In this document: one piece after another, positions 296 to 61,329 of the stretch
Layout of the letters: every line of letters starts with the position of its first letter
Numbering within the stretch: the stretch's first letter is position 1
Assembly: GCA_038245785.1 (NCBI GenBank)
Contig: JBBRSB010000004.1
Span: forward strand, 32,001 to 96,000
Direction of reading: 5' to 3'
From: Gloeobacterales cyanobacterium
GTDB lineage: Bacteria > Cyanobacteriota > Cyanobacteriia > Gloeobacterales > PMM-0068
DNA length: 64,000 nt
Translations under genes and position numbers: made by a program
The notes under the pieces: model-generated
Databases searched by the model: none
The model's input: only the letters and a program-made list of their open reading frames with translations
What the model was told of the DNA's origin: nothing

Positions 296-895
296 TTAAA
301 TTAATTCTTGTTTGAGGATATTTGAGCATTCTTCCAAAGCATCCATCACTACATGAGGGTCTGCTGATTGCTGCATTATTTCTGCTTCGAGGTCAAGTCG
401 ATTTTTAACATTGGGCAAGTCTTTTCTAAGTTCTTCAACTAAGGCAATGAGTTTGGCAACTTTCTGCTCAGATAATAAATTGATTTGCAAAGCCAATTGT
501 GCCCGTTGCTCTGCTAACTGTTCCTGCCGACTCTGACGTACCAGCACCGCAGCCGTCATTACCAAAGAAACTAGACTAACTGACTCTTGTAGAAAGTAAA
601 AAGGGGGTGGATCGAAAACTGGAATGTTCCACTGACGAGGCAAAGCATTAACCGTAATCCATAACCCATTAACAGCTAAAAGACTGTAGAAAAAAGCTGA
701 ACGCCCAAAAACTTCAGTAATGTGCTCAATCAAACGTTGATGGTGCGTTACATCTTGTTCTGCTCGCACTCTTAAAGCATTAATAGTTTCAACATTTTGC
801 CCAATATAGTCTGGGTACTGTGGCTTAGACGGAGCAGAAAATTGCTGCGCAACCCGTCTCTTTATAGAACTAATCGTACGCTTTGGGTTTTCCAT
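296..895 (-). CDS. DUF1003-family membrane protein
   Basis: FDPPPFYFL followed by VLVRQSRQ and LQINLLSEQK, typical of DUF1003, with two hydrophobic segments. Confidence 0.8.
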   Translation of the reverse strand: MENPKRTISSIKRRVAQQFSAPSKPQYPDYIGQNVETINALRVRAEQDVTHHQRLIEHITEVFGRSAFFYSLLAVNGLWITVNALPRQWNIPVFDPPPFYFLQESVSLVSLVMTAAVLVRQSRQEQLAEQRAQLALQINLLSEQKVAKLIALVEELRKDLPNVKNRLDLEAEIMQQSADPHVVMDALEECSNILKQELI

Positions 896-944
896 GCTTG
901 CAGAGCGTTTCCAGTCTTAGTTGGTCTTGTAGCAATAGATGTCG

Positions 945-980
945 TGATTTGTGATCCATTTCGAAATGGATCACAAATCA
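945..980. terminator. 36-bp perfect palindrome/hairpin just after the stop of the small membrane-protein gene
   Basis: TGATTTGTGATCCATTTCGAAATGGATCACAAATCA is its own reverse complement and lies 4 nt past the TAA at 985. Confidence 0.55.
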
Positions 981-984
981 TCGT

Positions 985-1140
985 TTACACCGCGCTTCGA
1001 CCTGTAATCAGGTTATAAGCCACACCAATTAAAGCTAAAACTAAAAGGATGTGGATTAAGCCACCACCCACATGAACGGCAAACCCAAACAGCCATAGGA
1101 AGAACAAAACAACAACGCCTGTCCAAACTAAACTAACCAT
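985..1140 (-). CDS. Small lmo0937-family membrane protein (51 aa, below the ORF-track cutoff)
   Basis: Hand translation: MVSLVWTGVVVLFFLWLFGFAVHVGGGLIHILLVLALIGVAYNLITGRSAV, with the GGLIHILLVLA signature. Confidence 0.85.
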   Translation of the reverse strand: MVSLVWTGVVVLFFLWLFGFAVHVGGGLIHILLVLALIGVAYNLITGRSAV

Positions 1141-1259
1141 GACTATTACCTATATTTCTAATGCTGCGATACTAATATCGTAAGTAAATCTCTGTTAATT
1201 GGAACCCGCCTAAAGGAGTAGATTTTTTTGTGGTCTGGAAGGCTGCCGCTCTGACAGAG

Positions 1260-1275
1260 TGTAGTAATCAATACA
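1260..1275 (+). promoter_or_regulatory. NtcA-binding site upstream of cynS
   Basis: TGTA-gtaatcaa-TACA is a perfect GTA-N8-TAC. A -10-like GATAGT lies 22 nt downstream (1297-1302). Confidence 0.7.
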
Positions 1276-1460
1276 TTTTGAGCTTTTCGCGCCTGAGATA
1301 GTACCAACAACCTTATCCCTAACGATAAATCCTTAACGTTCAATGGAGAGACTGAATATGGGCTATGCCATCTAGCCTTTCAAACCCGAGAGATTAGAGG
1401 AGACCGAGAGCATTCTTCCCAATAACAGCTACACAACTCTTTACCCGATGAGGAATTTCC

Positions 1461-1904
1461 ATGGCCATTCTTGAAATCACCGATGTTCTGCTAGAAGCAA
1501 AAAAAGAACAGAAGCTTACCTTTGCTCAATTGGGAAAGCTCCTTGGACGCGATAAAGTCTGGGTGGCAGCCCTTTTCTATGGTCAGGCACGAGCTTCGGA
1601 GGATGAAGCGTCTAAGCTGTTAGATGCTCTAGATTTAGAAGAAGACTTAGCTGAAATCTTGACTGATTTTCCCCTCAAAGGGGCTCTGGATGAGACGGTC
1701 CCCAGTGACCCTCTGATCTATCGTTTTTATGAAATCATGCAGGTCTATGGCATGCCGATGAAGGACGTGATTCAGGAAGAATTTGGCGATGGGATCATGA
1801 GCGCTATCGATTTCACGCTCACGATTGACAAAGAAGAAGACCCGAAAGGGGACCGCGTAGTCGTTACCTACAATGGCAAATTCTTACCCTACAAAAAATG
1901 GTGA
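1461..1904 (+). CDS. cynS: Cyanate hydratase (cyanase)
   Basis: [24 protein letters not shown] and GKFLPY motifs; 147 aa; AGGA ribosome-binding site. Confidence 0.97.
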
Positions 1905-1972
1905 CAGCGGATGAGCAGGGTCTTCTTCGAGACAGAGAAGACTCTGCTTTTTCGCTATACTGAAGCCCAACT

Positions 1973-2563
1973 ATGGCTAATCTCAAACGCACGCGAGACG
2001 ATATTCTGGTATCCATTCTTGACACTGTCCACCGTAAAGGCTTCAACGCGACGGGACTAAGTGAGCTATTTTCTGTTAGCGGTGCATCGTCTGGAAGCTT
2101 CTATAACTACTTTCACTCTAAGCATGAACTGGGCCATGCCTTGATTGACTTTGAGTGGAAAAGTCTTAGGGAACAGATCATCGAGCCGTCCTTTAGCGAA
2201 CATGAAGACCCGATTCTCCAACTGAGGGCGATGCTTGACCGCTTGGAGGCGAAACAGTTATCAGCCCCTGATTGTGCCGGTTGTTTGCTGGGAAATTTGA
2301 TTGTAGATTTAGTCGAGCAGGATGAATCTTTCCGCACCCATCTCATCGCTGTATTTGATGAATGGGAAGCAAGAATTGCGGAGGCCCTCAGCCGAGATAG
2401 CGATCAAGTCGCTCCTGAGGTGATAGCAGAACAAATGACCACCCTGCTTGAGGGCGTGATGTTGATGGGCAGGCTACGCCGCGACCACGATCGAGTTCGT
2501 CGTGGGTTTGCTGCTGCCCGCAATTTGCTCCAGCAGTCCACAAAGTCTAAGGTCTCTGCCTAA
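1973..2563 (+). CDS. TetR/AcrR-family regulator (NemR/LmrA-like)
   Basis: N-terminal HTH (GFNATGLSEL...GSFYNYFHSK) and a C-terminal GCLLGNL motif. Confidence 0.9.
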   Translation: MANLKRTRDDILVSILDTVHRKGFNATGLSELFSVSGASSGSFYNYFHSKHELGHALIDFEWKSLREQIIEPSFSEHEDPILQLRAMLDRLEAKQLSAPDCAGCLLGNLIVDLVEQDESFRTHLIAVFDEWEARIAEALSRDSDQVAPEVIAEQMTTLLEGVMLMGRLRRDHDRVRRGFAAARNLLQQSTKSKVSA

Positions 2564-2618
2564 ATTGGGTGAGCCGTAGCGTAAGACACTTTAATTTTAT
2601 CCAAACTCGATTAATTAT

Positions 2619-2632
2619 ATAGAACGTTCTAT
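2619..2632. promoter_or_regulatory. Candidate TetR operator upstream of the rhodanese gene
   Basis: 14-bp perfect palindrome ATAGAACGTTCTAT in the AT-rich intergenic region. Confidence 0.5.
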
Positions 2633-2720
2633 TTAGAATTTATCTCTGAGGCTAACGGTTGAGCCTGAGCGGATTATGGCTATGCAAAGAACCAACCTAT
2701 GAAAAAGGAGTAGGACCGAC

Positions 2721-3596
2721 ATGGAAGTTTCACCCTTGATTTCTCCAGCCCAGTTAGCGTTAGAGAAGGAACAGGAGTCTGTCGTTATCATCGATACCCG
2801 TGCCCCGGAAGAGTACGCCATTTCCCATATCCCTGGTGCGGTGAACATCCGCGAAATATTTACCTATTTGACCAACTCCACCCCAGAAGCTTTGCTCGGC
2901 CTGCAGTCCTTATTTTCAGAAATTCTTGGCGCGGCTGGTCTGTCGGGCGAAGAACGGGCGGTTATTTACGAAGATGCGATGGACAGTGGCTATGGACAAT
3001 CTTGCCGGGGATATTTTTTACTGAAGTATCTAGGGTATCCCAAGGTATCTGTTTTGCATGGAGGCTATAAAGCATGGCAGGCTGCAGGGCTTTCGACCAC
3101 AGCAGAAGTGCCCACGCCTCAGAAGAAAGTGCTTCCCCTAGAGATTAATACTTCGATCATGGTCACAACCGAGGAAATGCTGAGCGCACTCAGTGACCCA
3201 AAGGTGATCAAGTTGGATGTCCGAGATTATGACGAGTGGATAGGCACTAGTTCTTCGCCCTATGGGGTGGATTTCTGCCCGCGCAAAGGCCGGATTCCAG
3301 GTGCCGTCTGGATTGAGTGGTATGAGATGATGATGCCCGATTCCGAAATTCCAATGTTCAAGTCTAAAGAAGAAATTATCGCACTCTGCGAGGAAGTGGG
3401 CATCACACCGGATTCTGCGGTATACGTCTATTGCTTCAAGGGGTCTCGCGCTTCTAACACGCTGCTGGCCCTGAAAGAAGCAGGAATTAAAGATGTCCGC
3501 AACTACTTTAGCTCCTGGAATGAATGGTCTCGTGACCCATCTCTTCCGATTGAAACGGGGCAACCCAGTCCAGTCAGTATGGTTTCCCGTGTTTAA
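2721..3596 (+). CDS. Tandem-domain rhodanese/sulfurtransferase
   Basis: HIPGAV and GRIPGAV repeats, catalytic loop YCFKGSRA, and C-terminal NYFSSWNEW. Confidence 0.93.
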   Translation: MEVSPLISPAQLALEKEQESVVIIDTRAPEEYAISHIPGAVNIREIFTYLTNSTPEALLGLQSLFSEILGAAGLSGEERAVIYEDAMDSGYGQSCRGYFLLKYLGYPKVSVLHGGYKAWQAAGLSTTAEVPTPQKKVLPLEINTSIMVTTEEMLSALSDPKVIKLDVRDYDEWIGTSSSPYGVDFCPRKGRIPGAVWIEWYEMMMPDSEIPMFKSKEEIIALCEEVGITPDSAVYVYCFKGSRASNTLLALKEAGIKDVRNYFSSWNEWSRDPSLPIETGQPSPVSMVSRV

Positions 3597-3652
3597 CTGG
3601 CTACTCAGAATTCCCTATGCGCCGATGCTGAGTAGCAGCTAAAGATAGATAC

Positions 3653-3678
3653 AAAAACCCCCGGTCGAGGCCGGGGGA
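3653..3678. terminator. GC-rich hairpin between the convergent rhodanese and vapC genes
   Basis: AAAAA-CCCCCGG-tcgagg-CCGGGGG; the U-tract is on the minus strand. Confidence 0.6.
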
Positions 3679-3744
3679 TAGGGAAGATTCTTGTCAATAT
3701 AGAGATGTCATTTTATTCATTTGGTAACACATCTTTCTTCTGCA

Positions 3745-5192: not shown

Positions 5193-5285
5193 TAGCTATA
5201 GTTCCCAAATTTCCAACGACAGGATAAGGGCTGATCAAACGTTCAGCAGAACGAAATATCTCTAAATCTATAGAGGCAAAGGGAA

Positions 5286-5843
5286 TCAGCTAAAAGCGGG
5301 ATCTTTGAGATAGTCCTGGAAGCTCATTGCCTGTTGGTCTTTTTTCGATAGGACCGGGTCTTTGAGCGGCCAATCGATGCCTATGTCAGGATCATTCCAA
5401 GCCAAGCTTTTCTCTGCCGTAGGACTGTAATAGCCCGTCTGTTTATACTGCACTTCGACAAAGTCTGTGAGCGAGGCGAAACCATGGGCAAAACCAGGAG
5501 GGATGTAAAACTGCTTCTTATTCGCGGCGGAGAGTTCAAGTCCGAACCATTTGCCAAAAGTGGGAGAGCTGGCCCGTAAGTCCACCACCACATCAAAAAC
5601 AGTGCCGAGCGTACAGCGGACCAATTTACCTAAGGGCGCGGTCATATCTTGATAGTGCAACCCTCGCAACACGCCATAGGTAGACCGAGAGTGGTTTTCC
5701 TGGAAGAATTCCAGGTCCAAGCCCATCGCTGCAAAATCTTTCTTTTGCCAGACCTCCATAAAGAAGCCCCGCTCATCTTCAAAACATTGAACATCAATGA
5801 TTACAGGACCCTCTAGCGGAGTCTTAGTCAGTTCGGCCTTCAT
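5286..5843 (-). CDS. rfbC: dTDP-4-dehydrorhamnose 3,5-epimerase
   Basis: DERGFFME, GVLRGLHYQ and IPPGFAHGF motifs. Confidence 0.96.
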   Translation of the reverse strand: MKAELTKTPLEGPVIIDVQCFEDERGFFMEVWQKKDFAAMGLDLEFFQENHSRSTYGVLRGLHYQDMTAPLGKLVRCTLGTVFDVVVDLRASSPTFGKWFGLELSAANKKQFYIPPGFAHGFASLTDFVEVQYKQTGYYSPTAEKSLAWNDPDIGIDWPLKDPVLSKKDQQAMSFQDYLKDPAFS

Positions 5844-5872
5844 AGTGCTTCGTCGTTCCTCAAAAGGACAAT

Positions 5873-6946
5873 CTAGGGAATCTCAATGTGAGAATCATCT
5901 CCTAACAAAAAGCGATAGGCTTTGGGCTGGGATGGGGCGCGGGAGAGTTTGGCCCGACGACCGATTAGGCTATCTACAATCCGACTATCGATGCCCTCTA
6001 CCACCGCTCCTTCGAGGATTACGGAGTGTTCTATATCCACGCCTCTTAGCAAGACTCCATCGGCAATGCTGGAATAGGGACCAATGAAGCAATCTTCCAA
6101 GATGCAGTTGCGACCAATCACCACCGGACCTCGTATCGAACAGCGAATCAGGTCGCTGCCTGGACCCACCTGGACGCGACCAACTAATTGGGTTTGTTCA
6201 TCTTTAGTGCCCTGGAAACCTGTTTGACACCGCTCGTCTAGGAGGATGCGATTGGCTTCGAGCATGTCATCTTTCTTTCCAGTATCCAGCCACCAACCCT
6301 GTAGTTCTTCGGCTTGGACCGCATACTGACCATCAATCAGATGTTGGATCGCATCCGTAATCTCCAATTCTCCCCGCGGTGAGGGCAGAATCTGGGCAAT
6401 GGACTGATGGACTTGAGGAGAGAAGAAATAGACCCCAACCAAGGCCAGATTCGAAGGCGGATCTTTGGGTTTTTCTATCAAGCGCAGCACTTTACCTTGC
6501 CCATCAATCTGGGCCACGCCGAACGCTCTCGGATTTTTTACCTGTCTCAGCAGAATCAAAGCATCTAGACTCTCCGCTTTAAACTGTTCGATAAAGCGAT
6601 CCAGATCATCACAAATCAGGTTATCCCCCAGATACATGACAAAGGGAGAATCTTTCAAAAAGTCCTGGCTCGTTTTTACCGCATGGGCCAAGCCAGAAGG
6701 ATGGTCCTGGCGAATGTAGGTCAGCTTCGCTCCAAACTGTTCGCCATTTCCTGTTACCTGCTGGATTTCATCCCCCGTCTCCGGGCTAATCACAATCCCA
6801 ATTTCAGTGACGCCCGCTTTGACCATCGCTTCCAGACCATACCAAAGCACGGGCTTGTTGGCTACAGGAACCAGTTGTTTTGCGCCTGTATAGGTCAAGG
6901 GCCTAAGCCGAGTGCCCTTGCCTCCCGAGAGAATTAGTCCACGCAT
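5873..6946 (-). CDS. rfbA: Glucose-1-phosphate thymidylyltransferase (long form)
   Basis: GGKGTRLRPLT, AKQLVPVANKP and RGELEITDA, with a C-terminal hexapeptide region. Confidence 0.95.
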   Translation of the reverse strand: MRGLILSGGKGTRLRPLTYTGAKQLVPVANKPVLWYGLEAMVKAGVTEIGIVISPETGDEIQQVTGNGEQFGAKLTYIRQDHPSGLAHAVKTSQDFLKDSPFVMYLGDNLICDDLDRFIEQFKAESLDALILLRQVKNPRAFGVAQIDGQGKVLRLIEKPKDPPSNLALVGVYFFSPQVHQSIAQILPSPRGELEITDAIQHLIDGQYAVQAEELQGWWLDTGKKDDMLEANRILLDERCQTGFQGTKDEQTQLVGRVQVGPGSDLIRCSIRGPVVIGRNCILEDCFIGPYSSIADGVLLRGVDIEHSVILEGAVVEGIDSRIVDSLIGRRAKLSRAPSQPKAYRFLLGDDSHIEIP

Positions 6947-7794
6947 GGTTTAGCCTCAGCTAAGTATTGACTCAAACTTTCACGCCAATCGGTTAAAGGA
7001 ATTCCCAAATTGTGCAGAGAGGATTTATCGAGCAAAGAATATTGGGGTCTGGGAGCAGGCCGCTTAAATTCTTCAGTCGTCACCGGACGGACAGGCGTTG
7101 TTAGCCCCTTCTGTCGCAGAATTTCCTGGGCGAAATCGAACCAGGTGCAGGTTCCTTCATCACTGCAATGGTGTATTCCGTATTGCTCTGTCTGAATTAA
7201 TTGCTCTAAGGCTTTGGCCAGGGTCATCGTCCAGGTGGGGGAACCCTTTTGGTCCGCCACCACCTTCAGTTCTGTCTGGGTTTGGGCCAGATGGATCATC
7301 GTATCGACAAAGTTTTTGCCATGCTTGCCGTAGAGCCAACTGGTGCGCACGATGAAGTAACGTTCGAGGATGCCTTGAACAGCCCATTCTCCCATCAGCT
7401 TAGAACGCCCGTAGACGCCTAGCGGAGCCGTAGGATCATTGGGAAGATAGGGATGCGGCTGGGTTCCGTTGAATACGTAGTCTGTGGAGATGTACACCAT
7501 CGCTGCGTCTATCGCTTTACAGGCCACGGCGACATTCTGCGTGCCATAGCCATTGACGAGGTAAGCAGTAGCAGCATCGGACTCTGCTTTGTCTACGGCC
7601 GTATAGGCAGCTCCATGGATCACCACCTGCGGGCGATGAGCAGTGAAGAAAGCCTGTACCGCTTCAGGCTTAGTAATGTCCAATTCTTTGAGATCCGCCG
7701 CCAAGACCTGATGGCCTTGTTGCTTTAAATAGGGCACGAGATCTTGTCCCAGCATCCCTCTTGCCCCAGTCACCAGCACATGCATAGAAGTCAT
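6934..7794 (-). CDS. rfbD: dTDP-4-dehydrorhamnose reductase
   Basis: TGARGMLG, AAYTAVDKAE, STDYVF and YGRSK motifs. Confidence 0.96.
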   Translation of the reverse strand: MTSMHVLVTGARGMLGQDLVPYLKQQGHQVLAADLKELDITKPEAVQAFFTAHRPQVVIHGAAYTAVDKAESDAATAYLVNGYGTQNVAVACKAIDAAMVYISTDYVFNGTQPHPYLPNDPTAPLGVYGRSKLMGEWAVQGILERYFIVRTSWLYGKHGKNFVDTMIHLAQTQTELKVVADQKGSPTWTMTLAKALEQLIQTEQYGIHHCSDEGTCTWFDFAQEILRQKGLTTPVRPVTTEEFKRPAPRPQYSLLDKSSLHNLGIPLTDWRESLSQYLAEAKPCVD

Positions 7795-7796
7795 AG

Positions 7797-8783
7797 TTAT
7801 ACCAGTGGGGTGAGATCTTTGCGGACACGGTGCACCCAGTCCTGATGGCTCAGATACCAGTCCACGGTTCGGGCCAATCCAGTCTCAAAATCCACCGTTG
7901 GTTGCCAGCCGAGCGTGTCACCGATTTTCTTAGGGTCAATGGCATAGCGCAGGTCGTGACCAAGCCGGTCTGTGACAAACTCAATCAGGTCTTCTGACTT
8001 GCCCATCAGTTCCAGAAGCTTGCGAATCACTTGCAGGTTGGTCCGTTCATTGTGCCCACCCACGTTATAGATCTGACCACTTTCACCCTGGTGCAGCACG
8101 ATATCCATCGCCCGACAATGGTCTTCTACATAAAGCCAATCACGGACATTTTGACCATTGCCATAAACCGGCAACGGCTTATTCTCTAAAGCCAGGGCAA
8201 TGAAGTATGGAATCAACTTCTCGGGCAGCTGATACGGCCCGTAGTTATTGGAACAGCGGGTGGTGACGACTTCCATGCCAAAGGTCTCATGATAGGCCCG
8301 CACATAAAAATCAGCCCCGGCTTTACTGGCTGCATAGGGACTATTCGGCGCTAGCGGAGTTTCTTCGGTGAAATACCCTTCTGCACCCAGAGTTCCATAT
8401 ACTTCATCCGTCGAACATTGCAAGAAGCGACGCACTCCATACTCGCGAGCCGCATCGAGGAGCACCTGAGTGCCCGTAATATTGGTCTCGATAAATATGC
8501 CTGGATTTTTGATACTGCGGTCCACGTGGGACTCAGCAGCCAAATTCATGATGTAATCCACACCTTGACGGACGACTTGCCGCACAAAATCTTTATCTTG
8601 CAGTTGTCCCTTGAAGAATCGATAGCTAGGGTTTGCTTCCAAATCCTCTACGTTTTCAGGTCTGCCAGCGTAGGTCAGTGCATCCAGATTCCATATTTGA
8701 TACTCAGGATAGGTGCGCAGTAAGTGACGTACAAGATTAGAACCGATAAACCCGCATCCACCTGTTACCAATAGGGTTGTCAT
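7797..8783 (-). CDS. rfbB: dTDP-glucose 4,6-dehydratase
   Basis: GGCGFIG, AAESHVDRSI, STDEVYG and YAASK motifs. Confidence 0.97.
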   Translation of the reverse strand: MTTLLVTGGCGFIGSNLVRHLLRTYPEYQIWNLDALTYAGRPENVEDLEANPSYRFFKGQLQDKDFVRQVVRQGVDYIMNLAAESHVDRSIKNPGIFIETNITGTQVLLDAAREYGVRRFLQCSTDEVYGTLGAEGYFTEETPLAPNSPYAASKAGADFYVRAYHETFGMEVVTTRCSNNYGPYQLPEKLIPYFIALALENKPLPVYGNGQNVRDWLYVEDHCRAMDIVLHQGESGQIYNVGGHNERTNLQVIRKLLELMGKSEDLIEFVTDRLGHDLRYAIDPKKIGDTLGWQPTVDFETGLARTVDWYLSHQDWVHRVRKDLTPLV

Positions 8784-8889
8784 TCAAGGTTTCCTCATCC
8801 CCAATGTTAAAGAACTTAACAGAAAATCACCTGATTCGTGAGGGACGATCTAAAAAAAGGTCTCAGTACTTATTTCGTACCAGCGGTAA

Positions 8890-9726
8890 CTAAGTTTTCT
8901 TTTTACTTTTAGTTTTTTTCTTGGGTGTTTCTTTCGAATCTGTACCGCCCCGATAAGTAAATGCACGAATCACCGTTCCTTCTTTGGGTATATTGCCCGC
9001 AATAAAGCTGGCCTGGTCCGAGCCATACACCTGTACATCTCCTGGCGGAAACAATTTCATAAAGTCTTCCATACCGACTAAAGTGCAGCTTTCATCGGCT
9101 GCTTGTGTCTTGAAATGAGTTGGGATTACTATCCGTGGATTGAGGTCACTTACCGCTTGCTTAGCGGCTTCTGGCCCATAGGCTTTTTCACCACCGCCCA
9201 CAGGAATCAACAGAATATCGGGAGTCCCCAGTAGAATTTTCTGCTCGGAGGTCAGCGGAGAAGCAATCCCTCCCAAGTGCACAACTTTGATGCCAGCCTG
9301 TTGCCAACTCCAGGCCACATTCACTCCGTAGCGGTTCCCCTCTTTTTGGTCATGGTAGGTGCGCACCCCTTGAAATTTCAAGCTGTCGACATTGTAAATA
9401 CCGGGTTCAAACAGGACCTTAGGATTGCCTGGAATCACTTCTAGGGAACCTTCATCGAGCAAACGAGAACTTAGCAATACCAAATTGGAAGCCACAGAAG
9501 GCCGCCTATAGCCTGCAGTACAGCCTGATGGTTTAAAGGGATTGACCAAGATGGTCGATTCTGCAGAACTAAACAAAAAGCAGGTATGTCCTAACCAACG
9601 GATGTTCAAGGATTTCCCGGCTTTTGGGCGTTCTTTAGCGGTTTGAGCTTGTGCAGTGGAGCCCAATAGATCTAAGGGGGCTATTGCTGCGGTTAGCCCT
9701 AGGGCTAGAAGAATACGTCGCTTCAT
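8890..9726 (-). CDS. Exported MBL-fold metallo-hydrolase-like protein (cyanobacterial type)
   Basis: WLGHTCF, LLIPVGGG and IVIPTHF motifs, an N-terminal signal peptide, and position downstream of trpG. Confidence 0.85.
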   Translation of the reverse strand: MKRRILLALGLTAAIAPLDLLGSTAQAQTAKERPKAGKSLNIRWLGHTCFLFSSAESTILVNPFKPSGCTAGYRRPSVASNLVLLSSRLLDEGSLEVIPGNPKVLFEPGIYNVDSLKFQGVRTYHDQKEGNRYGVNVAWSWQQAGIKVVHLGGIASPLTSEQKILLGTPDILLIPVGGGEKAYGPEAAKQAVSDLNPRIVIPTHFKTQAADESCTLVGMEDFMKLFPPGDVQVYGSDQASFIAGNIPKEGTVIRAFTYRGGTDSKETPKKKTKSKKKT

Positions 9727-28590: not shown

Positions 28591-28969
28591 TGGTGGAGCT
28601 GACGGGAGTCGAACCCGTGTCCATCCGTAGCTATTAGACTCCCATTCATTCACAGGCTTAGCCTCTTTAACCCCAGAGACCGGGCGCTTCGTACCCAAAA
28701 GCGAAGGGTTTCCCTAACTGTTCTTAAGTCGGTATCCGTCAGGACTATACCAACAGCATCCGATGGGGGTTTGCTTAAAGCCTTATCGGCGTTAACTTTA
28801 AGCCTCTCACACAAATTAAGGCAATTTGTGCTTACGCGGCCAAGGCCACCTTACGAGAGAAAGGAACGAAGTTGTTCGCATTTACTGTTTTGAACTGATT
28901 TTACGGGATCGGATCACTCCCGGCCTGCAGAGAAGCGGTTCGCTAGAATGTCGAAACCGTGACAGCCCC
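28591..28969 (-). ncRNA. ssrA: tmRNA
   Basis: 5' GGGGCTGTCACGGTTTCGAC and 3' TTCGACTCCCGTCAGCTCCACCA; tag frame ANNFVPFSRKVALAA-stop. Confidence 0.97.
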
Positions 28970-49272: not shown

Positions 49273-49349
49273 TGGTCGGGACGGCGGGATTTGAACCCAC
49301 GACCCCCACTACCCCAAAGTGGTGCGCTACCAAGCTGCGCTACGTCCCG
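49273..49349 (-). tRNA. tRNA-Pro(GGG)
   Basis: CGGGACGTAGCGCAGCTTGGTAGCGCACCACTTTGGGGTAGTGG...GGTTCAAATCCCGCCGTCCCGACCA; anticodon GGG; CCA encoded. Confidence 0.97.
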
Positions 49350-53502: not shown

Positions 53503-53534
53503 TCTTAGGCCTGACTTAGATACTTTACGGCCAT

Positions 53535-53572
53535 AAAAACTCCTCTGAGTTCTGAAACTTGGAGGAGTTTTT
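53535..53572. terminator. Intrinsic terminator after rnj
   Basis: AAAAACTCCTC...GAGGAGTTTTT inverted repeat. Confidence 0.8.
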
Positions 53573-53728
53573 AGATCTATCGAGACTAAACCACTTTTCA
53601 TCATCTATCCCAGAAGAAAGTTCGAGGAAGGAAATGGTTAGTGGTTAGTTTCCCTCGCACATGCCCCTTTAGCGAGAAAGTTGATACAATTTCGGAGAAC
53701 TAACCCGAACGTTCTGGGAGAGTTGCTT

Positions 53729-54361
53729 ATGCCTATGCCTGCCGAAAACCAGACCACAAATGAGCCTCAAGAAAATATGACAGAATCTTCTCAAACCCCC
53801 CAATTAAATAGTGGAGACCTCGCGGGTGGAGGTAACATCGACAAAATCAGAGAGATTCTCTTTGGTTCTCAGATGCGCGATTATGAAAAAAGGTTCTCTC
53901 GACTAGAAGACCGTTTGCTCAAAGAATGTGCAAACCTGAAGGATGAAACTCGAAAGCGACTCGATACGCTGGAACATTTCATGCAACAGGAAGTAGAATC
54001 TCTAACCGAGCGGATGCGCGTAGGACAAGAAGCAGGTATTGAAGCAGCGAGGGAGATAACCAGAGAGGCTAATCAAGAGCTCGCCCAAGAATTAAGAAAT
54101 ACGGTGAAATCTCTAGACCGACGAGTTAGTCATCTTGATGACCAAAGCACCAAGAACCAACGAGAAATCCGTCAGCAATTGTTAGAACAATCCAAAAATC
54201 TCGGTGATGATATTCAACAGAAATATTTAGAGATTTTATCTATGCTTGAGCAAGAGGCCCTGGAGTTGCGTACTGATAAAACAGACCGTGCGACGCTGGC
54301 TGCGCTTTTTACAGAGATGGCCATGCGGCTTAATCACGAATTCACTTTGCCTAGTGAATAG
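53729..54361 (+). CDS. Coiled-coil protein, first gene of the Rab-like GTPase operon
   Basis: NIDKIREILFGSQMRDYEKRF and KTDRATLAALFTEMAMRL; GGAGAG precedes the ATG. Confidence 0.8.
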   Translation: MPMPAENQTTNEPQENMTESSQTPQLNSGDLAGGGNIDKIREILFGSQMRDYEKRFSRLEDRLLKECANLKDETRKRLDTLEHFMQQEVESLTERMRVGQEAGIEAAREITREANQELAQELRNTVKSLDRRVSHLDDQSTKNQREIRQQLLEQSKNLGDDIQQKYLEILSMLEQEALELRTDKTDRATLAALFTEMAMRLNHEFTLPSE

Positions 54362-54390
54362 AGAAAATAGGGAAATAGCGAGGGATAGTA

Positions 54391-55764
54391 ATGGCTGATT
54401 TCACCCGTGAAGTCCCCGAGAATAACCTCAATCACAATGCAGACAGTGATGAACTATCAGCACTGCGTGACTTGCTTTTCTCCCCTGAGCAAAACCAATT
54501 GGGTGAACTCCGGCAGCGTCTTGATGACCCTAAACGTTATGCGGAGGATGTCAGTCGAGTCCTACCGGAATCCATTCTCTTGAGAGCAAGTCAGGATAAG
54601 CAGCTAACCAATGCTTTGATGCCTACAGTTGAAGAAGCGCTCCAGATTTCTGTTCAAAGAAACCCTAGAATTTTAACGGATGCCATTTTTCCGATCATTG
54701 GTCCGGCTATTCGCAGGGCAATTACCAGTGCAATTCAGAATTTGATCCAGTCTTTGAACGAAACCCTGGATTCCAGCTTCTCGCCCAGGGGCCTGCAATG
54801 GCGGTTGGAAGCGCTACGAACAGGCAAGTCTTTTGCAGAAATTGTTCTTCTCAGGACCCTGCGCTACCGAGTTGAGCAGGTTTTTCTCATTCATCGGAAA
54901 ACGGGTTTGCTCCTCCAAACTGTAGTAGCAGAAGCCATTACCAGCCAAGATGCCGATATGGTCTCAAGTATGCTCACCGCCATCCAGGATTTTGTCAGAG
55001 ATTCTTTTGGCATCCAGCAAGACGATACACTGGGGACCATGCAGGTTGGCGAACTTACGGTATGGATTGAGCAAGGTCCTGAAGCTTTAATGGCCGGTGT
55101 CATTCGCGGAACTGCACCAGAAGAACTAAGACTCGTTTTTCAAGAGGCCCTAGAAACTATTCACGTTGAAAGGAAAGAAGATTTAGCTTCATTCCAAGGG
55201 GATAGTGCTCCCTTTGATGCCTGCAGACCGATTCTGGAAATATGCCTTCAGCAAGTGCAGCAGCGAACGGAAGTGAAAAAGTCATCTCCGGCCCTATGGA
55301 TTCTGGCTAGTGTGCTAGTGGTTGGAGCGAGCATTTTGTTCTTTTTTGTCTTTCAGAAAAACCAAGAAAACCAAAAATGGGTGAGCTACCTTGAAAAACT
55401 AAGAATGCAACCAGGTTTGGTAGTGCTCGCTACCACTGAATATCATGGAAAATATAACCTTATCGGATTACGGGATCCTCTTGCTATCGATCCTGCAAGC
55501 CTTTTGCAAGATAGCGCCCTAAACCCAGCCTCTGTGTATAGCCGCTGGGAGCTCTATCAATCCTCAGAGCCAGCCTTTGTTCTCACGAGGGCAAAGGAAC
55601 TGCTGCAACCCCCGCCCACGGTCAGCCTGAGCCTTAAAGATGGTACCCTCTATGCCAAGGGCTCTGCCCCCCAGTCATGGGTCAAAGATGCGCGCAAACT
55701 GGTAAGACTCCTACCAGGAGTCGTGCACTTTCAGGAAGACTTAAAGGGTGCACCACCCACATAG
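54391..55764 (+). CDS. Single-pass membrane protein of the type usually annotated OmpA-family; no OmpA domain visible here
   Basis: FPIIGPAIRRAI, YRVEQVFLIHRKTGLLL, DADMVSSMLTAIQDFVRDSF, a TM helix, and GLRDPLA. Confidence 0.75.
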   Translation: MADFTREVPENNLNHNADSDELSALRDLLFSPEQNQLGELRQRLDDPKRYAEDVSRVLPESILLRASQDKQLTNALMPTVEEALQISVQRNPRILTDAIFPIIGPAIRRAITSAIQNLIQSLNETLDSSFSPRGLQWRLEALRTGKSFAEIVLLRTLRYRVEQVFLIHRKTGLLLQTVVAEAITSQDADMVSSMLTAIQDFVRDSFGIQQDDTLGTMQVGELTVWIEQGPEALMAGVIRGTAPEELRLVFQEALETIHVERKEDLASFQGDSAPFDACRPILEICLQQVQQRTEVKKSSPALWILASVLVVGASILFFFVFQKNQENQKWVSYLEKLRMQPGLVVLATTEYHGKYNLIGLRDPLAIDPASLLQDSALNPASVYSRWELYQSSEPAFVLTRAKELLQPPPTVSLSLKDGTLYAKGSAPQSWVKDARKLVRLLPGVVHFQEDLKGAPPT

Positions 55765-55839
55765 GGTTTGTCTAAGGGAACAGTATAATCATTTAACCGT
55801 ATCTACCTATATAGTCTTACACGCTGGATGCCCTAGCTC

Positions 55840-56331
55840 ATGATTCAGAAAAAAATATGTATGGTAGGAGCTTCCGCCGTCGGAAAAACCAGTTTAGTAA
55901 GCCGTTTTGTTAAAAGCATCTATTCGGATATTTACCATGCCTCCATAGGCGTCAAGATTGATAAAAAAACGTTAACGGTGGGGGAGCAGGAGCTTAGTCT
56001 AATGCTCTGGGATATCGCTGGAGAAGACGAATTTCAGAAGATTACAATCTCCTATCTGAAAGGATCTTCAGGATATATCCTTGTGGTCGATGGGACGCGT
56101 AAGGAAACTCTCTATCGGGCCATAGATCTGCAAGCAAGAGTAGAGGAGGCTATAGGTCCGTCTCCCTTCGTTGTATTGATCAACAAGTCTGACCTGGAAA
56201 AGCAGTGGCAAGTTACGCCCGAGATGATCAAGCAACTCGCTGAAAAGGGCTGGACCGTCTTGCTGGGGAGCGCAAAAACTGGACTGGGCGTTGAAGATGC
56301 CTTTCTCACCCTTGGTAAGGCGATGCTTTGA
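55840..56331 (+). CDS. Rab/Ras-like small GTPase
   Basis: G1 GASAVGKTS, G2 region SIGV, G3 WDIAG, G4 NKSD and G5 SAK; 163 aa. Confidence 0.93.
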   Translation: MIQKKICMVGASAVGKTSLVSRFVKSIYSDIYHASIGVKIDKKTLTVGEQELSLMLWDIAGEDEFQKITISYLKGSSGYILVVDGTRKETLYRAIDLQARVEEAIGPSPFVVLINKSDLEKQWQVTPEMIKQLAEKGWTVLLGSAKTGLGVEDAFLTLGKAML

Positions 56332-56345
56332 GAGCCCATCGCAAA

Positions 56346-57023
56346 TCACAGCCTACGACAAGCCCGTACGACTCTACCCAGAATGACGGACTTCTCAGCC
56401 AACTCAGACACACTCATCGTCCAAGGCTCATAGGAAGCGTTATCACTACTCACCCTAATCGTATCGGCTGCAATACGCTGTAGACGTTTGATCAACAATA
56501 CGTTCTCGATTTGCAAAACATAGATCCCGTCATGCACGGCCGTAGCGTGGAGATTAGCTAAAACAATATCTCCTGGGTAGAGAGTCGGCTTCATGCTTTC
56601 TCCCTCCACGTAGAACAGTTTTAGATCTTGAGGCTTAGCATGCAGCTGAGAGAGCCAACTCTTTTTGATCGCTAGAGGCTCCTCAACCGCAGTTTCCTTA
56701 TCATCAGGAGCCAGGTAAAGAGAAATGAGCGCATAATCATCTAGACTAGCCAGGTACTCCGTGGCATTAGGAGTAGACCGCTCCTCTGGAGTACCCATGA
56801 GAAGCCAGGCCGGATTGACCCCGTAGCGTTCACAAATGCGCATCAGCAGAGCAGAATCAGGCAATCGCTCTTCTTTCTCATACCTGATTAACGTGTTTTT
56901 GTGTACTCCCAGCGATTGGGCGAACTCAGCCTGGGTAAAGCGGCCTCGGACCTGTGCAATACGAAAACCAATCCCACGAGGCTTGGACGGATTGGAAGAA
57001 TTAGAGGAAGAAAGGCTGGTCAT
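56346..57023 (-). CDS. XRE-HTH plus S24 peptidase phage-type repressor
   Basis: TQAEFAQSLGVHKNTLIRYE HTH; GESM.P (Ser) and IKRL (Lys) catalytic dyad. Confidence 0.9.
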   Translation of the reverse strand: MTSLSSSNSSNPSKPRGIGFRIAQVRGRFTQAEFAQSLGVHKNTLIRYEKEERLPDSALLMRICERYGVNPAWLLMGTPEERSTPNATEYLASLDDYALISLYLAPDDKETAVEEPLAIKKSWLSQLHAKPQDLKLFYVEGESMKPTLYPGDIVLANLHATAVHDGIYVLQIENVLLIKRLQRIAADTIRVSSDNASYEPWTMSVSELAEKSVILGRVVRACRRL

Positions 57024-57137: not shown

Positions 57138-57440
57138 ATGACGAATAAAGAAAATAATAAAGAAGAAGCTTGTGAAGATTGGCACCCTGCTGACGTAAAA
57201 GCTGCCCTAGAGAAACGGGGATGGTCTCTCTCCAAGCTATCCAAGGCACACGGTTATAAACGGGGCAGTGCCGCAAAAGCTCTGTACCACCCCTGGCCGA
57301 GAATGGAGCGCATCATCGCCAAAGTCTTAGATTTAGAACCATGGCAGGTTTGGCCATCACGCTATAACGAATCTGGCTCTTCCAATCGTGGTCCTGGGGG
57401 ACGTCCTCCGTATATTCATTCTGCCACGATTGATGGTTGA
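57138..57440 (+). CDS. Ner/Nlp (SfsB)-like DNA-binding protein
   Basis: DWHPADVKAALEKRG.SL, PWPRMERIIA and WPSRY motifs. Confidence 0.92.
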   Translation: MTNKENNKEEACEDWHPADVKAALEKRGWSLSKLSKAHGYKRGSAAKALYHPWPRMERIIAKVLDLEPWQVWPSRYNESGSSNRGPGGRPPYIHSATIDG

Positions 57441-57675: not shown

Positions 57676-60600
57676 ATGCCTATCACGCCCCTCCCAAAGA
57701 ATGAGCAGGAACGGCTAGCAGCACTCCATCGCTACAATATCCTGGACACAGCGCCAGAAGAAGCTTTTGATCGCATTACAGCGCTTGCCGCTCGCTTATT
57801 TTCCGTCTCTATCGTGGCGGTCAGCTTGTCGGATCGTGAACGCCAATGGTTTAAGTCTTGTCAGGGTCTTGAGGTCGATCAAATAGACCGTCCCATAGCT
57901 TTCTGTTCATACGCTCTCTTATCTCCCAAGACTCTGATTGTTCCTGATGCCCATCTTGACTGTCGCTTTGCAGACAATCCCTTAGTGATAGGAGGACCAA
58001 AAGTACGGTTCTATGCCGGAGCAACCCTACGCACTAAAGATGGATATCAGCTTGGGACTTTCTGTATTGCTGATCAAAAACCACGCAGCCTATCATCACA
58101 GGAACAAGCGAACCTAGAAGACCTTGCAGCTATTGTAATGAATCAGATAGAGCAAAGATTATTCATTGAGAAAGTAGCCCAGACAGAACGAGCATTAAAG
58201 CGATCTGATACCAATTTAAAGGCTATCTTTGATAACAGTTCACAATCATTTGTATTGATTGATAGAGAACATAAGATTCAAGCATTTAATAAAATAGCTA
58301 ATAAAAGAGCAAAACTTATTTTCAATAGGAGACTCAGGGAAGGAGATTCTATCTACAACTTTGTGATTGACTCTGATCTAGATGATTTCAATAGAGACTT
58401 TAATAGTGCTCTGTGTGGGAACCCAGTAAAAATTGAACGAGAAATCCCTTCTAGTACGGGAGAAGGCCACTGGTTTGAGTTTGACTATAGCCCTGTTTTC
58501 GAAGAAGGAAAAGCGATCGGAGTTTGCTTGAGCGTCCTCAGTATCAATGAAAGGAAAAAAGCGATTTGGGCACTTGCTGAGAGCGAAGAACGATTCCGTT
58601 CTCTAGTCCAGAACTCCTCAGACATCATCACGATTCTCAAAGAAGATGGAACCATAAATTATGGCAGTCCGTCTATTCAAAGAATTTTGGGGTACCAGCC
58701 GGAAGACTTGGTAGGAAAGAATCTATTTTCCTATGTACATCCAGAAGATGCTCCAGCCGTACAATCTATCTTTTCCACGGCGAGTCAACAAATGGGTATC
58801 CCGATAACAATGGAATTTCGGTTTATTCGCATTGATGGATCTTGGCGATATTTAGAAGCGATTGCAAATAGCTACATTGCAGACTCCTCCTTCCAAGGAG
58901 TGATTGTCAACTACCGAGATGTAACGGAGCGCAAAAAAGTAGAAGAAGCACTCCTCGAAAGTGAAGAGCGCTATCGTTTCTTAGCAGAGAACGTGACCGA
59001 TATTATTTGGACACGAGACATGGAGCTGAAGTATACGTACATCAGTTCTTCTGTTCAGCGGGCCCGTGGCTATACTGTCGTAGAAAGTATGTCTCAAGGG
59101 ATTACAGAGATACTAACGCCTTCTTCTCGCGAGTTAGCTATCAAAAGCTTACAGGAAGAACTGGAACTGGAAAGAATGGGAGCTCCACTTTGGAGATCGC
59201 GAACCCTAGATCTGGAATATATCTGTAAAGATGGCTCAAAGATCTGGGGTGAGACTTCCATGGTTTTCCTGCGTGATGATAAGGGGGAAACAATCGGAAT
59301 TTTAGGTGTGGTTCGTGACATTACTGAGCGTAGAAGAGCTGAAGAAGCTTTGCGGAAAATTGAAGCTAGAGATAGAGCATTTTTGAATGCCATTCCAGAT
59401 TTAATGTTAGGCATTAGTAAAGAGGGGAAGTACATAGATTTTTTGGGTTCAAATACAAAGGGAGGCCAAGAAAGTTCTTACGCTCGTATATTTCTTGGAG
59501 AGAGTGTCTATGAAGCTTTGCCTTCAGAAGTTGCGCAGCGCATGATGAATGCGGTGGACCAAGCCTTAAACTCTGGGGAAACCCAAATCTTTGAATATCG
59601 GCTTTCTGCGGAAAGTGAGATACATGATTATGAAGCCCGTATCGTGGTTAGTGGAGAAAATGAAGTCCTCTCGATTATCCGAGATATTACAGAACGAAAA
59701 CAACTGGAGCGAGAACTCATTGCCGCAAGAGAAGAAGCCCTAGAGGGAGCACGAATTAAAGCGCAATTTCTTGCCAATATGAGTCATGAAATTCGCACTC
59801 CAATGAATGCCGTTATTGGCATGTCAAGCTTATTGTTAGATACTGAACTAAGCGCAGAGCAACGAGACTATGCTGAAACAGTGCGCTATTCCGGTGAGGC
59901 TTTGCTCACCGTAATTAATGATATTCTCGATTTTTCCAAGATAGAAGCTGGCAAGCTTGAAATCGAAGTCATTGATTTTGATCTTAGTCGAGCCGTTGAA
60001 GATATAACAGCATTACTGGCAGAACAAGCTAGTCGTAAAGGATTAGAACTAGGTTGTTTAGTCTATGGCAATGTGCCTAAAATGCTTAGGGGAGATCCTG
60101 GTAGGCTCTGCCAAATTCTTATTAATATCCTCAACAATGCGATCAAGTTCACGAAACAGGGAAACGTTACGCTTTCCGTTAAACTAATCGAAGAAACAGA
60201 GCATCAGGTACTCTTACGCTTTGAGGTTAAAGATACAGGGATTGGAATTAGCCCTAAAGAGCAGAGTCGCTTGTTTAAACCATTTTCTCAGGCAGACAGT
60301 TCAACCACGCGCAGGTATGGTGGGACAGGGCTGGGGCTGGCTATTTCTAAACAACTTGTGGACCTCATGGAAGGAGAAATTGGGGTTGAAAGTGCTCTTG
60401 CTCAAGGAACTACCTTTTGGTTTGCATTACCTTTAGAAAAACAACCTGAAACGCCCCAATCAGTCATTCCTTCTCCTGATATAGTCCTTAAGGGATTGCG
60501 CGTACTTATTGTTGATGACAACGCAACGAACCGTAAAGTTTTGGCTCATCAGCTGACTTATTGGGAGGTGCTTTATGACGAAGTAGAAGGCGGTCTCCAG

Positions 60601-61329
60601 GCTTTAGAACGGCTTCGAACCTCTGGCCTCACCTACGACTTAGTCATTTTGGATTTGATGATGCCCGACATGGATGGTATCCAATTGACGCACCTGATCA
60701 AAGCAGACTTAGCGCTGTCTGATATTCCCCTGATCTTGCTCGCCTCTTTCCGAGAACGGGGAGACGTAGAAACTGTCAAGCAAGCCGGGATCGCTACTTA
60801 TCTGACCAAACCTGTGCGTCAATCCCAATTATTTAGTGCAATAGTGCAAGCACTGGGGCACACTAGCCCGCTCATATCCTATATGCCCGCGCCCATATCT
60901 CCTCCTCTTGTGGAAGGGGTTAAAAAAGCTAACAAAGCCATATCCCAGAGCCTGATCTTGGTGGCTGAAGACAACGTTATCAACCAACGAGTAGCGGTAC
61001 GCCAGTTAGACCGATTAGGATATCGGGCTGATGTAGTGGCCAATGGGCTGGAAGTCCTAGAAGCTCTAGCCCACACACCCTATGCTCTAGTGCTAATGGA
61101 TTGCCACATGCCAGAGATGGACGGGTTTGAGGCAACCGCAGCTATTCGTGAAAAAGAAGGTGCTCACCACACTATCATTGTGGCCATGACAGCCAGTGCC
61201 ATGCGGGGAGAGCGAGAAAACTGCCTGCAAGCAGGAATGGATGACTATATTGCCAAGCCTGTAAAGTTAGAAGAGCTTATCTCTGTGCTTGAACGCTGGA
61301 TCCCGCCAGGCCTCCCTGAGATGTTGTGA
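57676..61329 (+). CDS. Hybrid histidine kinase (GAF, about four PAS, HisKA, HATPase, two REC)
   Basis: ERLAAL..Y.ILDT GAF start, repeated RDITER PAC ends, [23 protein letters not shown], and two receiver domains. Confidence 0.95.

Follow-up and report, generated by a model that had tools for sequence, protein, structure and literature searches.

We analysed a stretch of 64,000 nucleotides (nt) from contig JBBRSB010000004.1 of a Gloeobacterales cyanobacterium (assembly GCA_038245785.1), referred to here as the window, and focused on a block of three co-oriented genes on its plus strand. The genes encode a coiled-coil protein, a single-pass membrane protein and a small GTPase of 163 amino acids (aa), with gaps of 29 nt between the first two and 75 nt between the last two (positions in Table 1). 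The coiled-coil gene may start at ATG 53729 or at ATG 53735, and the caller of open reading frames (ORFs) reaches back to TTG 53681. This gene content, as described in the initial annotation of the window, was confirmed by the ORFs, a helix model, hydropathy and a Pfam Ras match.

The arrangement corresponds to a known system. Wuichet and Søgaard-Andersen defined Group 1 Rup neighbourhoods in a computational study of 2014, with the order DUFY, DUFX (with or without OmpA), Rup and output, normally four genes (PMC4316618). As described there, DUFY is a coiled-coil protein, DUFX is a conserved domain often followed by a transmembrane helix and OmpA, the GTPase lacks the G3 glutamine, and the fourth protein is a signalling protein with an invariant N-terminal Gln; the paper states that no member had been characterised at its time of writing. 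The window copy shares the gene order, the coiled-coil protein, a membrane protein composed of a conserved domain and a transmembrane helix, and a Gln-less Ras-like GTPase. Judged by sequence, the triplet is the DUFY, DUFX and Rup of such a neighbourhood, and the first three components fit, because the motifs, the neighbourhood and the homology to cyanobacterial loci of the same layout all agree.

The GTPase carries the G1 (GASAVGKT), G3 (WDIAG), G4 (NKSD) and G5 (SAK) boxes and no CAAX tail, as reported initially. No cysteine lies near its C-terminus, and none was found in the last 5 residues of either this protein or 120/120 listed homologues. The genome has 4 Ras-family matches, of which this is the only strong one. 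The catalytic Gln is replaced by Glu62 (Glu in 58/78 and Gln in 5/78 aligned homologues), and the G2 box has Ser35 (codon 55942-55944) in place of Thr, as in 2/23 close and 8/97 other homologues. Its best solved match is Rab14 (E 5.7e-25), with partial likeness to RabF1-F5 in the alignment. The first description of this protein as a eukaryote-like Rab holds with respect to Rab14 and fails on two counts, as the prenylation tail is absent and published analyses group Rup1 broadly with Rab/Ras/Rho/Ran, outside the Rab family (10.1101/2024.02.28.582541, PMC4915359). On its sequence, the GTPase is classed as Rup1 and not as a true Rab, for which "Rab" is only a similarity label. Among bacterial proteins, Rup1 GTPases come closest to eukaryotic Rab/Ras/Rho/Ran. 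The G3 Gly is Ala in the GTPase of G005, a genome of the same order, and the G2/G3 variation was noted at the window codon above, L001:2502-2996 and L088:8549-9079.

Searches of Pfam and NCBIfam assigned no family to the membrane protein. An AlphaFold2 model of it, built from 68 sequences, had a mean per-residue confidence (pLDDT) of 78.3 and a predicted template modelling score of 0.45. The protein has one hydrophobic stretch, with the best window at residues 302-320 (Kyte-Doolittle 2.64), and the resulting topology would place the preceding segment in the cytoplasm, including two motifs quoted in the initial annotation, both of which are present. The model of residues 157-295 was compared with 48,161 solved chains, 62 of which matched at Z 8 or more. 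It aligned with the Sec22b longin at Z 14.6 over 126 residues (root-mean-square deviation, rmsd, 2.3 Å), with Vamp7 at 13.6, Synbindin at 13.1 and a Lokiarchaeota longin (8YQG) at 11.7, and with entries of TRAPP (3CUE) and Mon1-Ccz1 (5LDD) at 10.4 each. The roadblock protein MglB ranked below the longins (Z 8.7, rmsd 3.0, 103 aligned). Longin domains are defined by the topology b-b-a-b-b-b-a-a over about 120-140 aa (PMC3747258), and the model of residues 157-295 has this topology. Foldseek on the domain model agrees with the assignment. A full longin domain at these residues, longin rather than roadblock permutation, is well supported by the predicted structure, which narrows the earlier guess of a longin/roadblock fold. 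A PDB sequence search was also run with the full alignment; among the matches listed (60/79), all fell at profile positions 427+, which is the OmpA part of homologues.

The membrane protein's C-terminal part resembles BON domains on the predicted model. Foldseek matched it to BonA (E 1.1e-5), DolP (2.6e-5) and OsmY (6.3e-4), and structural alignment gave BonA at Z 8.2 (rmsd 3.3, 68 aligned, at residues 389-457) and CdsD at Z 9.0 (rmsd 7.2, 124 aligned). No match to Pfam BON was found in the protein. These BON-like domains are likely periplasmic, and the long N-terminal helices at residues 19-156 are likely cytoplasmic and oligomerising. The coiled-coil protein was modelled as a single helix at residues 35-182 (148 residues) plus a helix at 187-204, with pLDDT 83.7. 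Foldseek returned no specific fold match for this model at E 0.001 or better, and Pfam and NCBIfam gave weak coiled-coil matches only. A weak motif common to the N-termini of the coiled-coil (53830-53900) and membrane (54445-54525) proteins was seen by hhalign (E 0.004, probability 8%); this likeness is too weak for us to claim that the two N-termini, of DUFY and DUFX, share an ancestor.

We then predicted the complex of the GTPase with two copies of membrane-protein residues 95-296, with no nucleotide and with 3 controls. The complex scored 0.71 (runs 0.71, 0.70 and 0.72), and the best of the 3 controls scored 0.00. The score mark applied is reached by 116/157 solved complexes and 2/215 mismatches, counts that are only roughly valid here. 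The runs agreed in at least 95% of contacts, with pLDDT of at least 83 for the GTPase. In the predicted geometry, the GTPase sits on the paired alpha-1 helices of the longin dimer, as in TRAPP or Mon1-Ccz1. The longin contacts are residues 170-174, 186-205 of both copies and 269-272, which take in the two motifs from the initial annotation and a loop around G270. The GTPase contacts are residues 1-5, 25-42, 53-57 and 67-76; the predicted interface thereby includes I40, W57, Y72 and both switches and leaves the P-loop outside. In support of the interface, its residues are more conserved than the others, both in the longin (0.79 vs 0.63; 23 residues, p 0.004) and in the GTPase (0.81 vs 0.67; 29 residues, p 0.0035), and longin residues M194, A197, I198 and F201 are invariant in 78/78 rows of the alignment. 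Longin dimers have been described as binding GTPases on the alpha-1 face and acting more often in the role of guanine nucleotide exchange factor (GEF) (PMC3747258). On these models, the longin of the membrane protein very probably binds the GTPase directly.

To examine the conservation of the block, we surveyed the neighbourhoods of 80 loci, the best among 544 confirmed in 18/64 parts of a genome collection. The counts take only loci with enough flank, and the loci, mostly from Cyanobacteriota and Acidobacteriota, are related and not independent. A coiled-coil homologue lay upstream of the membrane-protein gene in 73/74 loci, a GTPase downstream in 71/73, and both partners in 66/68. Given the last count, the three-gene arrangement is not due to chance, in line with the co-occurrence expected from the initial annotation. 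The representative library gave 4721 matches at E 0.001 or better, and the longin domain is present in 3/14 genomes of the host's order. A genome scan with the single protein found no relative; an alignment-based scan recovered the loci. Against the closest named relative (L001, 75% identity), the ratio of nonsynonymous to synonymous substitution (dN/dS) was 0.087 for the coiled-coil gene, 0.099 for the membrane protein and 0.124 for the GTPase, from one pair near saturation, with 0.064 for the longin part alone; three neighbouring genes gave a similar range, 0.035-0.148. The triplet is real, conserved and kept under purifying selection.

In a quick tree, the window copy and L001 fall outside a 99-supported clade of the remaining cyanobacterial copies, and their grouping with Acidobacteriota has a support of only 92. 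Horizontal origin is not established from this tree, from which L082 was dropped as redundant and L084-L086 were filtered out. Several other loci differ in layout. G005 holds a divergent cassette (47%; L088:6571-10857), after which come two ORFs of a PAS/GAF kinase; the cassette's membrane protein ends at 422 aa without OmpA and lies apart from the window copy in the quick tree. L074 has adjacent cassettes at 645-3714 and 5235-9621, one with an OmpA-less membrane protein of 465 aa. L084-L087 form a divergent subfamily from the same class, with membrane proteins of 738-927 aa (~25% identity) and the GTPase next downstream.

Compared with the usual Group 1 Rup module, the window copy is reduced. 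The C-terminal OmpA domain, which is peptidoglycan-binding and stated as "often" present, hence optional, is absent from its membrane protein, and DUFX also lacks OmpA in 8 of the 24 rows examined in Table S2 of PMC4316618. In our survey, OmpA was fused to the membrane protein in 75/77 loci, the exceptions being L001 and the second copy in L074. The 10 closest clusters (72-92% identity) all encode proteins of 450-465 aa without OmpA, which is missing in 2/109 others listed. The absence is therefore a fixed trait of the lineage and no artefact of this assembly. The sole OmpA-like match in the host genome (own profile, E 0.001 or better), at L095:2350-3924 on contig C1, is 524 aa long, has a transmembrane helix and an N-terminus rich in Cys, and has no evident link to the three-gene block. 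The usual fourth gene with a Gln-bearing N-terminal domain was found by profile neither beside the triplet nor elsewhere in the genome. Such a gene lies near the cassette in 69/72 loci, the exceptions being L001, L008 and L050, of which the latter two also lack the GTPase. At a cut-off of E 0.1, the profile of this domain matched nothing in the host genome, G002 or G005, with weak matches only in G017 and G039; a second Gln-domain profile found none in the host genome at E 1, which means "not found" rather than proof of absence, the assembly being 98.2% complete with 5888 bases outside the search. Because OmpA and the Gln-domain output gene were not found, the block is filed as a reduced variant and not as a complete system. 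In some loci, the Gln-bearing domain occurs as a separate small gene upstream of the cassette (L016:4716-5192, L055:4831-5271, L070:4831-5277 and L079:1195-1584). A hybrid histidine kinase lies 1.3 kb downstream of the triplet, past a pair of cI-like and Ner-like genes, and in the same position in L001 (1086 aa). It was ruled out as the canonical fourth gene, as it is without the Rup1 Gln-bearing family domain, and is the first candidate for the output.

Taken together, the models point to the longin of the membrane protein as a likely binding partner and regulator of the GTPase, comparable to the longin proteins that regulate Rab GTPases in eukaryotes. The reading that we favour, to which we give an even chance, is a reduced Group 1 Rup module with a membrane-anchored longin platform of GEF-type or allosteric action. 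The single-pass membrane protein would dimerise through its predicted cytoplasmic longin domains and bind the GTPase as a 2:1 complex. The contacts would run from the two alpha-1 helices, the beta1-beta2 loop and the loop at G270 to the interswitch strands and to switches I and II. The platform may recruit the GTPase to the membrane, because the GTPase has no lipid tail, and would load it with GTP there; the BON-like domains could set the place or an envelope cue, and the coiled-coil protein could serve as a scaffold. If binding is granted, GEF-type or allosteric activation would take about half of our expectation, docking only a clearly smaller part, and GTPase-activating protein (GAP) behaviour the smallest. 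In favour of exchange, Y28 and Y32 lie in the predicted interface and, judged from motif spacing, are the counterparts of F33 and Y37 of Ypt7, two residues held in pockets of Mon1-Ccz1 (PMC5216073). A bolder version, tentative and on balance doubtful, is a bacterial longin-dimer GEF acting on a Rab-like GTPase with TRAPP/Mon1-Ccz1 geometry inside a transmembrane envelope sensor, of which the Gloeobacterales-type three-gene core would be a self-sufficient minimal version.

A number of observations weigh against the favoured reading. In the complex, the longin copies reach only pLDDT 68-69, and the score refers to the complex as a whole. Because the arrangement matches known longin/roadblock dimers, the high score may stem from resemblance to longin-Rab complexes already solved. 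The higher conservation of the predicted interface comes from a test that ignores burial, nucleotide-binding residues and relatedness and uses the alignments that also fed the complex prediction. The longin is barely detected by sequence profiles, the best being Pfam Fuz_longin_1 (E 0.0098, 3/79 members), which has no match in the window protein's own domain; ESM Atlas scores for it are 0.82 or less and serve as leads only. The G3 Gly is lost to Glu in 3/23 close relatives of the GTPase. Since this copy is missing OmpA and the output domain, it shows no evident relay from envelope to output. Effectors, too, usually bind the GTPase surface contacted here, so the interface would also suit docking without exchange. 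Finally, the exchange-driving K38 of Ypt7 has no equivalent lysine in the aligned GTPases (H in 34, Q in 23, L in 18 and K in 1 of 78).

One alternative takes the longin for a dock or effector at the membrane that depends on nucleotide, neither GEF nor GAP, as the SRX longin is for SR-beta; the GTP-bound protein and the scaffold would then mark a membrane site. We consider this rather unlikely. It would agree with the absence of a K38-like lysine, with an interface that takes in I40, W57, Y72 and both switches and does not cover the P-loop, with the description of longin domains as often passive platforms (PMC3747258), and with a three-gene core still under selection without an output gene; however, the Y28 and Y32 contacts match the Mon1-Ccz1 GEF geometry, and SRX is a monomer (PMC3747258), unlike the predicted dimeric platform. 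Less probable still is GAP action by the membrane protein, which could be allosteric, as with MglB, or could provide in trans the Gln that the GTPase lacks, or an Arg (conserved Q163, Q186, R239, R108 and R138). The GTPase has no G3 glutamine, and another GAP may be needed because the genome yielded no match to the domain proposed as Gln donor; Q163 and R239 are present in 75/78 rows, and Q186 (83%) lies inside the predicted interface. GAP-type longins (FLCN, SMCR8 and NPRL2), however, carry a GP motif before beta-2, with an arginine finger next to it (PMC12290439); the motif is absent here, with G172-L173 in its place in 77/78 rows. No conserved Arg was found in the predicted longin interface (R203 28%), and Q163 and R239 are outside the predicted contacts, though residues that the prediction leaves unnamed are uncertain.

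Finally, the block could be a decaying relic of the four-gene module that has lost its output and cell-wall anchor, an explanation that we regard as very improbable. The missing OmpA and output domain, the G2 Ser, the replacement of the G3 Gly in 3/23 close relatives and in G005, and the occurrence in only 3/14 genomes of the order would suit decay. Nevertheless, the reading frames are open with dN/dS of 0.06-0.12, like the neighbours, and all 10 closest clusters stop at about the same length; the G2 Thr-to-Ser change was ruled out as a sign of decay, since Ser also occurs in GTPases outside the close clade. The reduced copy suggests that selection keeps a three-gene core without OmpA or a known output.

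The favoured longin platform invites comparison with better-known systems. Eukaryotic longin-dimer Rab GEFs (Mon1-Ccz1/Ypt7 and TRAPP Bet5/Trs23/Ypt1) share with the window protein the longin fold and the predicted alpha-1 binding of the GTPase; the window longin differs as a predicted homodimer within a transmembrane protein, at 5-15% identity, its GTPase is not prenylated and has no K38-type lysine, and its GEF activity is putative. MglA-MglB of Myxococcus and the actinobacterial conservon likewise combine a bacterial small GTPase with a dimer platform of the roadblock/longin superfamily, and the conservon is also linked to membrane signalling. Unlike in MglA-MglB, the window GTPase is Rup and not MglA, the fold is predicted as longin rather than roadblock permutation, and the domain forms part of a membrane protein instead of standing free. 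Asgard archaea likewise have a prokaryotic longin fold (8YQG), and RasL GTPases in the same Ras-like clade; in Asgard MK-D1, GTPase genes are generally described as not being in operons with longins (PMC10933270), whereas gene order fixes the pairing in these bacteria.

The system itself has been published before, and the longin/roadblock superfamily is known in bacteria; the mechanism is a prediction only. In 2013, prokaryotes were said to have no longin domains (PMC3747258), and longins have been treated as eukaryotic or Asgard, with roadblocks as the bacterial form (PMC3521125, PMC10933270, PMC13408092). Elsewhere, longin/roadblock is listed jointly as present in bacteria (PMC4917890), 48% of longin/roadblock proteins are placed in structural clusters spanning all four lineages (PMC13734099), and profilin-longin-like domains are linked with GTPases across life (10.64898/2026.10.19.760177). 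DUFX has no assigned fold in PMC4316618, whose main text does not contain the word "longin"; here it is predicted as longin plus BON-like. We found no paper that names DUFX as a longin or reports a Rup1 experiment, in a search with most subscription journals outside it, and six locus tags of Table S2 appeared in the 2014 paper only. The initial remark that such triplets are annotated without functional characterisation agrees with this, except that the system had been defined in print, normally with four genes. The widespread bacterial operon of longin and GTPase provides a cognate pair set by gene order, with interface residues named, and a two-protein exchange assay can therefore test longin-Rab regulation in bacteria.

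Table 1. Features of the three-gene block and its surroundings in the window
Feature	Position	Strand	Basis or remark
DUFY-type coiled-coil protein, 210 aa	53729-54361	+	Helical model, upstream homologues, dN/dS 0.087
DUFX-type single-pass membrane protein, 457 aa, OmpA-less	54391-55764	+	5788 homologues among 7998 scored
Long N-terminal helices, residues 19-156	54445-54858	+	pLDDT mostly 53-67, 76-83 at residues 131-150
Predicted longin domain, residues 157-295	54859-55275	+	b-b-a-b-b-b-a-a, fold match, predicted interface, dN/dS 0.064
Transmembrane helix, about residues 302-320	55294-55350	+	Sole hydropathy peak above 1.5
Two BON-like domains, about residues 330-455	55378-55755	+	Structure matches on predicted model
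Rup1-type small GTPase, 163 aa	55840-56331	+	Pfam Ras E 3.3e-30; Glu62, Ser35, no prenylation tail
Hairpin with A-run and T-run ends	53534-53573		-22.6 kcal/mol
cI-like regulator, helix-turn-helix plus S24	56346-57023	-	Stops 14 nt past GTPase gene end
Ner/SfsB-like regulator	57138-57440	+	Divergent from cI-like gene, between triplet and kinase
Hybrid histidine kinase, 1217 aa: GAF, four PAS, HisKA, HATPase, two REC	57676-61329	+	
tmRNA	28591-28969	-	
tRNA-Pro(GGG)	49273-49349	-	

The hairpin upstream of the block is likely the terminator of the upstream gene and thus the 5' limit of the three-gene block; it was absent from the output of a simple consensus terminator scan, and promoter and terminator scans around the block gave sites at chance level only. 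The upstream genes are those that we take to be asd, dapA and RNase J. On the other side, the divergent cI-like and Ner-like genes presumably resemble the Mu-type c/ner switch. In L001, the cI-like gene has shrunk to a 98-aa fragment on the minus strand, and the Ner-like gene is kept (dN/dS 0.07).

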